This document shows positions 18,001 to 21,000 of a stretch of DNA of 64,000 nt, in pieces. Every line of letters starts with the position of its first letter. The stretch's first letter is position 1. This DNA is from Escherichia coli O157:H7 (lineage in GTDB: Bacteria > Pseudomonadota > Gammaproteobacteria > Enterobacterales > Enterobacteriaceae), in NCBI RefSeq assembly GCF_013167455.1, contig NZ_CP038328.1. One strand, 5' to 3'. The position numbers were made by a program.

Positions 18001-21000
18001 CTGGTGGTGAGCAATGGTTTCAACCATGTACCGGATGTGTTCTGCCATGCGCTCCTGAAACTCAACATCGTCATCAAACGCACGGGTAATGGCTTTTTTG
18101 CTGGCCCCGTGGCGTTGCAAATGATCGATGCATAGCGATTCAAACAGGTGCTGGGGCAGGCCTTTTTCCATGTCGTCTGCCAGTTCTGCCTCTTTCTCTT
18201 CACGGGCGATCTGCTGGTAGTAACGCGCCCAGCTCTGAGCCTCAAGACAATCCTGAATGTAATAAGCGTTCATGGCTGAACTCCTGAAAATGGCTGTGAA
18301 AATATCGCCCGCGAAATGCCAGGCTGATTAGGAAAACAGGAAAGGGGATTAGCGATTCAGGCCGTTACCGCGTCCGTCGAGAAAAACTTCCACGAGCAAA
18401 TCACGGGTATAAGTGCGCTCGATGCCGCGATGCAGATAAAGCCGTCCGCGTAAATTAGCTGATGCAGTCCAGGTACCATCTTTGTGTTTGACCAGCATTC
18501 CTGGCATGACCGCACCTCGATTAACGGTCTGCGTTCCGTAATGTTGATGAACCATAAAAACTCCTGCCCGTAAGCTGGGCTGCTGAACATATAGAGACTT
18601 CTGCGCGTATTCAGGCGGTGGATGGCCGCCGGTTGTCATAACTAAGTCGCCTCGTTGAAGCGACTGAGGTATGAAGTGTTGAGTTGATTTCAGCTGGTCA
18701 CACCGACGTTCACGCGTCCGCTTCACCCCTCGCACTCCCCGGAGCCTGCTGAAATTCAAGCTGCGGATCTAAGCGGTCATCGCAACGGTGAAGTTATAAA
18801 TTTTGTGATACCAACATCGATGCAATAGCATGACAATAGCAATGGCTATTGGTGTAGTCAATAGCAATTAGTATTGATAATGTTTGATATACTTGTTCTG
18901 ATTGATAATTAAATGAATTTTTATAAAAAAGAGTATGAAGACTTATTGGTGTGGCTGAAATTTGTACAGCTTTAATGTGCCTCGTGACAGAGGGGCATCG
19001 GGTTGTGGTGAACTCGGTAGGTTGGCAGCAAATTTAATCGAATATTGGTAGTCTGAGTTCTTATGTGTATTTTTTTAGTCAGTTGCTAAATGATACATAA
19101 ATGACTTATTAGCCCCGCCATCGCTTTGTACGGGGCGTTTATTTAATTTATCTTTTCAACATTTCCATGAATCAACAAGTCGTAGGCAAGAAATAGTTTC
19201 CTATACTGGGTTTTTAAATTGTCAACGTCGCATGCCTTGAATTGAACAAACGCTTCTTTTTTAACATAATCTTCAATCTCCTCTTTGGGGATATTTTTTA
19301 TGTTCTTAATGACTATAGACAATTCTTTGTACTTTTTGAACGTTGCATCCTTTATATCTTTGATGTTGGTGTAAATTTTATTTGCATTGATTTTATCTAA
19401 GGTGATTTTATTGAGCAAGTCGTCTAGTTTTCCGTGGCGTTCAATGCGTTGATTTAGTTTTAACACATATTTAGCTGGCAAACTTAACTCTTTCAAATTA
19501 CATGAGGTTATAGTTTTTGAAAATGGAAGTTGTAATGAGTTTACTGAACCTAATATGAAATCTATGGCTAATTTATTAGATATTTCATTTTTATTAAATA
19601 AGTAGTCTTCAAGATAATTTATTTCTTTAACTTGTGTGAATACATACTTTTTATCGCCTAGAGCAACAACTAAATTTTTTCCTTGTTTAACACTTTCTTC
19701 AAGTCTGTCTAAGTCAGAAGGTGAAACCAATAGAGTATCTAAGTGCCCTTTTTCACCCTCATTAATGATAAGTGTTTTAATGGCTCTTTGATACCTTAAA
19801 ACATCATAAGGTGAGAGCCCTTCATCAACAGCACTGATCTCATCATAGATCTGTTTATAGTTATCTGTTTTAACAGATGTATATGTAATTTGTAGCTGTT
19901 GATCGGTAATCTGTTTTGGTACTACTTCTTGTTCATTCTCTTTATATTCAATCAAAATTATTCTTTCAGCTGATTTTCGACCATCTTCTCTAGGTAGTTG
20001 TGAGGAAAAATCAGAAAGAAGTTTCTTTACATTCCTGTCAGTTAAAGAATATCCAAGAAAAACTATTGGATTTTTAATCATGTTAGATAGTATCTTGGCA
20101 CTAATGAGTATAGATTTGTTGTCATATTTTTCGTAATCATCTTTATTTATGATTATTGAGTGTGGATCCTTTATATCACCATGGATTTTGTATAACTCAC
20201 TCCATCCAATGGTATCTTCGAAAAAACCATTATTTCCAATATAGAGTTTTGGAGTTACATTTTGCTCTTGAAGTAAATTTTCTATGAAAGCATCATAATT
20301 TGTAGTGATGATTATCTTGGCCTTTTTTATTAATGTTTTAAATGATGCTAATTCATCAAGATTTACATCCTTTCTGATTGTGTTATTAGAAAATCTTTGG
20401 CATATGGCGTATTTAAATGGTGAAATATCTTCACTAAAAACCCTCTTGGCATCTAGTCCATTTAATTTTAATTTGCCAGTCCTAAACAATAGATTGTAAT
20501 CATTTTCAATTTTACTTGCTGCCTCTGTATAAATCTTATGATCGATATCATTATCACTGTTATTTTTATGTGATTCTTTTATTGTTAAAAGATAACTATA
20601 GAAATCATTTGTGGGATTTGTTATTTTCCAATACTCGTTTAATAGCTCTTCCCACGTTGGGTAGTTCTCTAAATATCTTTTTGAAATGCCTGAGCCAATA
20701 AAGACTATTGGGTAATTTTTGAATTCAAAATTTTTTTTTGACATATCCATATACCTTAAGCTCTGCTTGAAACATCCATTCTATAAATTATGAGGATGTC
20801 AGCATGTCTCACCAAAACATCATCTGGTTATCTTGATGAAATCTGTCATTAATAATCTACCCATGTTTTCTATATGTCTGTGGCATGCTCCCAATAACTT
20901 TCCCAAATATAAATACCCGATTCATTTCGTCTTTTTCGATCGGGTCCCACGGTGAGTAGCTCTTGTTATCAGAGATAACCAGCAGCTTATCCTTCATCAT

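Follow-up and report, generated by a model that had tools for sequence, protein, structure and literature searches.

A kil gene of the KilR/phi80 family and its predicted untranslated leader at the probable start of the leftward early operon of an N-less lambdoid prophage in Escherichia coli O157:H7

The DNA analysed here (the window) is a stretch of 64,000 nucleotides of contig NZ_CP038328.1 from Escherichia coli O157:H7 (assembly GCF_013167455.1), and this report concerns the interval between gam and the operators of a lambdoid prophage, in which an open reading frame (ORF) of 136 codons with a TTG start is found (18349-18759, minus strand). Leftward, the order is pL, leader, kil, gam, bet and exo. 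The gam gene (17977-18273, minus strand; Pfam PF06064, E 2.2e-63) is of the lambda type in its 98-amino acid (aa) GamS form and lies in a block homologous to lambda, in which window positions 15662-18355 were matched by blastn to lambda 30500-33193 (2695 nt, 96.7% identical DNA) and nothing further aligned. By tblastn over the 64-kb window, Exo and Bet were 97.8% and 99.6% identical to the lambda proteins and Gam was also matched; exo-bet-gam, which an earlier sequence-only reading had called lambda-identical, are near-identical but not identical. That reading had also placed the 136-codon ORF directly next to the operator region, which is correct, as it is the sole ORF of any size between gam and the operators. 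The pL promoter (18833-18861, minus strand; TTGACT-17-TATTGT, TG-extended) is overlapped by the operator repeats. These oL operators (18813-18882) are 18-bp palindromic repeats of families D1/D3, which form the inverted pairs I1, I2, I8 and I19 with oR at 21594-21665. The CAATAGCAATGGCTATTG 18-mers are the operators at 18834-18851 and 18859-18876, and the related sites at 21594-21665 adjoin the divergent repressor gene.

The ORF is predicted to contain a kil gene of the KilR/phi80 family rather than an N-like gene, and this kil is unrelated in sequence to lambda kil. Residues 60-135 of the ORF matched phrog_294, "Kil protein for bacterial septation inhibition", with E 1.8e-38 over profile positions 4-79 of 83. 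KilR of the Rac prophage falls in phrog_294 too (E 7.5e-35), whereas lambda Kil falls in phrog_3924/2461. BLASTP against K-12 KilR gave 36% identity over 61 aa (E 3e-12), with KilR M1 aligned to M29 of a 96-aa form of the window protein, and the Kil genes of HK225 (70%), phi80 (39%), Stx phages (34-36%), mEp237 and Salmonella and Klebsiella phages were matched by tblastn. The core of the gene (18349-18555, minus strand) would encode a 68-aa cell-division inhibitor of the KilR/phi80 type, and exactly this product is also annotated by PGAP; the Kil label is carried in the records of Perceval, the PhiR phages and IdasGreatGrand. For lambda Kil (47 aa), no BLASTP alignment with the window Kil was obtained at E <= 100 and no tblastn match was found in the window. 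Because the window Kil is unrelated in sequence to lambda Kil, the comparison based on lambda had missed it. The statement of the sequence-only reading that no kil is recognisable between gam and the operators is therefore withdrawn, since the C-terminal 68 codons are of the KilR/phi80 type, and so is its label of a putative N-like gene: the ORF turned out to be a kil homolog, which that reading had itself named as the outcome that would speak against it. Toxicity and targeting of FtsZ/MreB have been described for Rac KilR, which is unrelated to lambda Kil although both proteins target FtsZ (PMC12482147), the reported target of lambda Kil (PMC3961180, PMC12482147). By homology with Rac KilR, the small toxic Kil of the window would block FtsZ-ring formation after induction.

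The homology to lambda ends at 18355/18356 (lambda 33193), within lambda kil and 6 nt from its 3' end, and therefore the two kil genes share their stop codon (lambda 33187-33189; window 18349-18351). The matches to Stx1 phages stop at the same place (18352-18355). A lambda-type recombination module is joined here to a KilR-type kil at the shared kil stop codon, and the mosaic junction proposed earlier just after gam is thereby confirmed. Within the 64-kb window, no tblastn match better than E 0.16 was obtained for CIII, Ea10, SieB and N of lambda, and none at E <= 1 for lambda Kil, Ral, RexA/B, CI and Cro, phi80 N and HK022 Nun; the CIII matches were at chance level (E >= 0.17), with none in the early-left region. 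Judged from these searches and from the nut-site scans below, the whole window lacks N, nutL, cIII, ea10, ral and sieB, which is ordinary lambdoid mosaicism. The kil-cIII-ral-sieB block that had seemed unrecognisable is thus missing as far as cIII, ea10, ral and sieB are concerned, but kil is present in its KilR/phi80 form. Since the lambda homology stops at 18355, short of the start position of the long form, the 138-aa Gam annotated in lambda is not encodable in the window (18274-18394), and only the 98-aa form is encoded.

Codons 1-40 of the ORF (18640-18759) are predicted to be an untranslated leader, and the arginine-rich "peptide" is explained by translating a structured RNA that is rich in G; its source is the leader RNA element described below. 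No Shine-Dalgarno sequence precedes TTG 18759. ATG 18555 is preceded by AGGAG at 5-nt spacing, a strong Shine-Dalgarno sequence, and aligns in the family alignment with the starts of KilR and of the Kil proteins of phi80, HK225, KO-TP1 and mEp237. A CAG>TAG nonsense variant at -27 was observed in 5 haplotypes and recurred in a sample of loci anchored on Gam, and in the homologous leaders of a second sequence type (P-type; the window lineage is W-type) the arginine-rich frame contains TGA and TAA. HK225 and phi80 are homologous to the window only as far as 18675, at which point both have a terminator, and nothing is annotated over the leader by PGAP in the E. coli genomes listed. Along the 40 codons from TTG 18759 to ATG 18639, the ratio of synonymous to non-synonymous changes in the Gam-anchored sample was 5:8, with 4:9 in each of the other two frames. 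Four points carry most of the non-coding call: the nonsense allele, the stops that homologues have in this frame, the lack of a Shine-Dalgarno sequence and the start position shared by the family. The arginine-rich N-terminus remarked on earlier is accordingly regarded as 5' untranslated region and not as protein.

Several observations weigh against this assignment. The match to NCBIfam NF008465 ("FtsZ inhibitor", the KilR model, PRK11354) reached 60.3 bits (E 1.3e-16), below the 92-bit cut-off of the model, so that the window protein is a relative of KilR outside the narrow subfamily defined by NCBI. No Pfam match for Kil was found in the local Pfam, and PF27398 was seen only as a precomputed label of homologues. 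The first sample for synonymous and non-synonymous changes was biased, as its loci had been chosen by Kil protein identity; when the count was redone on Gam-anchored loci the contrast weakened (kil 11:9, extension 5:8), and the coding signature of kil in this unbiased sample, 11 synonymous to 9 non-synonymous changes, is modest. Gene callers are split between 68 aa (PGAP, ATG 18555) and 96 aa (Prodigal-type callers, ATG 18639; a database cluster of 472 members), and a 139-aa form of Kil was chosen by the annotators of Perceval. Translation may also begin at ATG 18639 and include the in-frame extension of 28 codons.

With these points taken into account, the leftward early operon of an N-less DLP12/Perceval-like lambdoid prophage very probably begins in this region, and the ORF is very probably kil behind an untranslated leader. 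Transcription would start at pL (18861-18833) and cross about 190 nt of leader before it reaches kil, gam, bet and exo.

This assignment agrees with the outcome of the searches for N, and no N antiterminator gene is predicted in the window. Lambda N gave one chance-level tblastn match of 17 aa (E 0.46) at 41362-41412, far from the leader, and the ORF had no N-type Pfam or PHROG match. Neither boxA nor boxB, for which a search between 18760 and 18815 had been suggested, was found there or elsewhere in the leader: boxA within 2 mismatches was absent from the whole 64-kb window, and a boxB-like hairpin with a 5-bp stem and a GNRA-like pentaloop was absent from 18556-18835 and from the region after cro. 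No Rfam match was obtained at E <= 1 over 17000-23000.

Two other explanations of the arginine-rich stretch were weighed. It would be very surprising if the full 136-aa ORF, or the 139-aa form of Perceval, were the real Kil, that is, a longer protein whose N-terminal domain is basic: the window and most W-type haplotypes do keep the frame open, and the long form is annotated as Kil in the records of Perceval and several PhiR phages, but its TTG has no ribosome-binding site, a natural nonsense allele falls within the extension, the family start is ATG 18555, PGAP and Prodigal-type callers pick 68 or 96 aa, and in relatives that are 48-70% identical the equivalent stretch is interrupted by stops or terminators. 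The arginine-rich segment might otherwise be an N remnant or a functional mini-N, formed by a deletion that fused about 17 first codons of N to post-tL1 sequence; this is highly improbable, as is the accompanying proposal that the deletion removed the rest of N and the tL1 terminator. The idea draws on a short resemblance of KRTRERRCDQLK to N-type arginine-rich motifs such as TRRRERRAEKQ of lambda N. It also draws on a GTG with GGGGAG located 8 nt upstream, and on the boundary at 18675/18676, which falls exactly where the T-run of the terminator ends in phi80, HK225 and KO-TP1. Against it, tblastn of the 29-mer resembling the motif at E <= 10 over 50,697 phage records returned its own lineage only and no N gene, and in the P-type homologues the frame is shut by TGA and TAA, although both the RNA sequence and its base pairing are preserved. 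A nonsense variant is present, a synonymous bias is absent, and no nut site lies upstream; moreover, N function needs the NusA- and RNA polymerase-binding parts of N besides the arginine-rich motif, and the segment would offer the motif alone. A general caution follows from this locus, namely that an ORF extended through a G-rich structured leader can mimic an arginine-rich, "N-like" N-terminus, and that "kil" is the name of two unrelated protein families which fill the same slot.

The gene order seen in the window is widespread. Perceval (Bievrevirus), 4A7, Lambda_4C10, PhiR and DLP12-like phages and prophages share it and are 96-99% identical to the window from gam through kil and the leader up to 18792; in the isolated phages Perceval, 4A7, Lambda_4C10, 1W, 3W, several PhiR phages, IdasGreatGrand and Turner the identity of this segment is 97.5-99%. 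The leader element itself is 96-100% conserved in 16 phages and in the E. coli genomes counted below. In a survey of IMG/VR, 556 loci encoding a window-type Kil were found, and in all 80 that were examined for leader context the leader adjoins the pL/operator region, with two related immunity types. The leader is carried by 2209 of the 5426 complete E. coli genomes (~41%). In the Perceval annotation from 28175 to 50143, which includes int, early, Q and lysis genes, no N is present. The layout pL-leader-kil-gam-bet-exo is therefore very common, ordinary and already annotated in RefSeq and in phage records; the gene-content finding itself matters little, as this is a kil of known kind, and the RNA structures of the leader are the only part worth further work. 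In IdasGreatGrand (L002), whose leftward operon has the same N-less leader and kil, a perfect boxA-like CGCTCTTTAACAA was seen after cro at about 7685-7700. Some Kil proteins in the database (P0036, P0040 and P0076) start with MTTGGHPPPEYAQ and then continue in the +1 frame (LWFINITERRPLI, the frame of the window ORF at 18357-18590); apparently, kil has undergone a frameshift in some E. coli genomes.

Three known systems were compared with the window. Rac resembles it in that KilR (b1352) belongs to the same PHROG, has an aligned start and occupies an early-left position upstream of recombination genes, and in that Rac has a switch of the RacR/YdaS/YdaT type and no N. It differs in that kilR is followed by ydaE-racC-recET and not by lambda gam-bet-exo, and in that the two proteins are only 36% identical and have different C-terminal tails (FLGRDGLPVKAESW is one of the two). 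The leaders also differ, as that of Rac holds the KilS small RNA and the window leader is unlike it; no resemblance between KilS and the window leader was seen in a comparison by eye. KilS is annotated by RefSeq upstream of kilR (L090 6406-6503, E. coli K-12 Rac) and indicates that kilR-type genes tend to have upstream RNA features. In phi80 (JX871397), Kil is homologous to that of the window (39%), a hairpin/AUG/GGCGG element is shared with 28 identical nt, and the Perceval annotators label the window-type protein "phage phi80 Kil homolog". In phi80, nutL, N and the terminators tL1A/tL1B lie between pL and this element, whereas the same interval of the window holds a structured leader of 112 nt, no N and no terminator. 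Lambda Kil occupies the same slot directly upstream of gam with the same stop codon and the same reported target, FtsZ, but it has no sequence similarity to the window Kil and belongs to different PHROGs, and the rest of the lambda block is absent from the window.

The leader RNA element spans 18681-18792 (minus strand) and was divided by comparative folding with RNAalifold into domain I (18775-18731) and domain II (18730-18692). In a first search these 112 nt (18792-18681) looked specific to the lineage; short-word blastn then gave matches of 88-89% in two contigs, and a pattern scan found 19 contigs of the P-type. The P-type element lies 50-75 nt after a pL-like promoter and is combined with at least 6 operator/promoter sets, including that of phi80, and with at least 5 downstream genes. 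Following the same first ~60 nt of the pL transcript, phi80 continues into the nutL boxA and N, whereas the contigs L202 and L295, which have a phi80-type pL, continue into the leader element, and no N-like gene was found after the element in these two. Strong intrinsic terminators lie between the element and kil in P-type operons, and in L202 this is the same GCCGCCTAACCAGCGGC-T6 hairpin that is annotated as tL1A in phi80. Between the W and P types, 3 pairs are changed on both sides (A-U/C-G, G-C/A-U and A-U/G-C) and several become wobble pairs, and 99.5% of cells were paired, compared with 25-40% in slid controls. Folding of the element was no better than that of shuffled sequences (z = -0.1 and -0.3), and the minimum free energy (MFE) of the whole leader gave z = -1.57; support for the structure is comparative and not thermodynamic. 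The polymorphisms at -103 and -82, which co-vary within E. coli, were considered as a compensatory pair and rejected, as all four combinations occur and the consensus does not pair the two positions. With covariance model R2, a single copy of the element was found per phage, and none was found on the pR side. Two scans of one-genome-per-species contigs for conserved blocks gave 0 matches each, and no P-type element was found in complete E. coli genomes, in which only the W type occurs, about 81% identical to P.

Downstream of the leader element, two hairpins and an upstream ORF precede kil. Hairpin 1 (18637-18673, minus strand), identified by comparative pairing, has the form CAUACC-stem-loop(UUCAnnGAG)-stem-UUAUG and encloses the AUG at 18639. 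Hairpin 2 (18614-18630, minus strand), GGCGG-CCAUCCA-CCGCC, is invariant in nucleotide sequence across the phages compared; phi80, HK225 and Klebsiella phage KO-TP1 carry it unchanged. The order of the element is CAUACC, the hairpin that pairs CAUA with UAUG at its base, ACAACC and then GGCGG-CCAUCCA-CCGCC. From the AUG in the hairpin, 28 codons in frame with kil (18556-18639, minus strand) begin with MTTGGHPPP; they are the start of an upstream ORF that is separate from kil in HK225, phi80 and KO-TP1 and is fused to it in frame in the window, which gives the 96-aa form. This ORF always starts with MTTGGHPPP and then diverges in length and sequence, and the HPPP codons are invariant, synonymous sites included. 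A literature search for MTTGGHPPP gave nothing relevant. The homology to HK225 and phi80 resumes at 18675, which corresponds to the end of the terminator T-run in HK225, phi80 and KO-TP1; the phi80 terminator is annotated as tL1A and follows N directly. By pattern scan, the hairpin/AUG/GGCGG element was present in at least 120 viral contigs, and outside the window lineage it lies immediately after intrinsic terminators. Further copies were seen at L007 2990-3051, at about 3500-3560 in L006, at about 2487-2546 in L172, and in L173-L292.

Among 40 distinct sequences, the inner stem of hairpin 1 occurred in 4 versions; both partners had changed in 6 of the pairs, and 97.5% of cells were paired, compared with 31-50% in slid controls. 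The covariation score was 0.35 versus 0.13 in shuffled alignments, and 0 of 500 shuffles reached 0.35. For the window copy, hairpins 1 and 2 together gave -25.8 kcal/mol (z = -5.55). The stretch 18556-18639 is hyperconserved, with 1-2 variable sites per 84 nt among 21-50 haplotypes, compared with about 0.1 per nt in the flanks; it is conserved beyond what coding alone would explain. We infer that the hairpin and upstream ORF form a device controlling translation, and perhaps access of Rho, ahead of the toxic kil.

As P-type operons hold strong terminators between the leader element and kil, an antiterminator function of the element was also considered. On this proposal, the leader (18792-18681) would act in cis as an RNA that enables RNA polymerase to pass the intrinsic terminators downstream. 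It would be a functional analogue of putL of HK022, unlike put in sequence and fold, and would replace nutL and N in N-less lambdoid phages; this complements the assignment of kil and does not contradict it. The element would then be an undescribed RNA-only processive antiterminator, and the hairpin and MTTGGHPPP ORF next to it would form another conserved device, through which expression of the toxic kil is gated. The proposal is tentative and is considered rather unlikely. It is favoured by the position of the element 50-75 nt after pL across at least 7 operator/promoter sets with at least 5 different downstream genes when both types are considered, by its taking the place of nutL-N of phi80 after the shared ~60 nt in L202 and L295, which are without N, and by its two stem-loop domains with 3 compensatory pairs and nearly complete pairing. 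The terminators between element and kil in P-type operons point the same way, the hairpin in L202 being the tL1A that lies just after N in phi80, and the genes between element and terminator yield no N-like PHROG. In the window operon itself, a good terminator-like hairpin is present in the part homologous to lambda, before xis/int (15853-15835, minus strand), with an 8-bp stem followed by TTTTATTGTT, between an orf61 homologue and a TraR/DksA-type gene; W-type phages are isolated, viable phages.

Other results argue against an antiterminator. The element is present once per phage and not on the pR side, unlike putL and putR of HK022; it shows no similarity to put, and its MFE is no better than that of shuffles. 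The covariation comes from essentially two lineages, W and P, with few independent events, and in the window lineage the element and kil-gam-bet-exo are not separated by a terminator. Alternatively, the element may serve RNA stability, processing or the binding of a protein, or may be a sequence conserved at a module junction. The likeness to put of HK022 is one of layout only, with a promoter-proximal position after pL, about 85 structured nt, two stem-loop domains and an N-less lambdoid phage; put occurs in two copies (putL/putR) against one of the leader element. A degenerate put pattern had 0 matches in the window, and a covariance model built on putL and putR found no match in the early region, its best hit in the window being one of 14 bits at 4115-4187. 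Put-like mechanisms have been guessed by other authors for N-less lambdoid phages (PMC12315714), and no description of how such phages pass early terminators was found in the literature. N-less lambdoid phages are common, and a covarying leader at the position where phi80 has nutL-N is a concrete candidate that is cheap to test.

The neighbouring immunity region was also inspected. A cI-type repressor gene with helix-turn-helix and S24 peptidase domains (20857-21585, minus strand) is 96.7% identical to the CI region of Perceval. It is followed in the rexAB position, between the repressor gene and pL, by a gene for a 535-aa SIR2-family protein (19143-20750, minus strand; Pfam SIR2_2, E 1.2e-23; PADLOC PDC-S25, E 2e-235), a moron of low G+C content (28-32%); PDC-S25 is a candidate defence system of PADLOC. 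Different genes occupy the rex position in Perceval and IdasGreatGrand. A Rac-type switch at 21654-22452 (plus strand) matched Pfam YdaT_toxin (E 1.2e-29) and YdaS_toxin (E 9.6e-15), where the YdaS-family Cro was judged on the intact copy of Perceval and the 181-aa YdaT-domain protein is "CII-like" according to PHROGs. From this domain content, the immunity region is assigned to the Rac type and not to lambda Cro/CII. As the switch consists of a repressor, a YdaS-like Cro and a YdaT-like "CII" and not of lambda CII, cIII would be dispensable in this prophage.

In the cro-like gene (21654-21882, plus strand), a 5-bp deletion of one tandem AGCCC copy at about 21734-21738 was observed relative to Perceval and 37 other loci. 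The deletion frameshifts the YdaS-family Cro into ORFs of 39 and 31 aa in place of 75 aa. It recurs in 5 IMG/VR loci whose immunity type is that of the window (L014, L019-L022) and is therefore inherited. Lytic growth may no longer be possible for this prophage.

Farther along the window, three tRNA genes (Met-CAT, Arg-TCG and Arg-TCT) are located at 29763-30014 (plus strand), after a strong terminator-like hairpin at 29367-29386. This hairpin lies downstream of the ORF at 28872-29321, which we take, from its position only, to be a putative Q gene. The arrangement of tRNA genes and hairpin presumably resembles the late-promoter region of Stx-type lambdoid phages.

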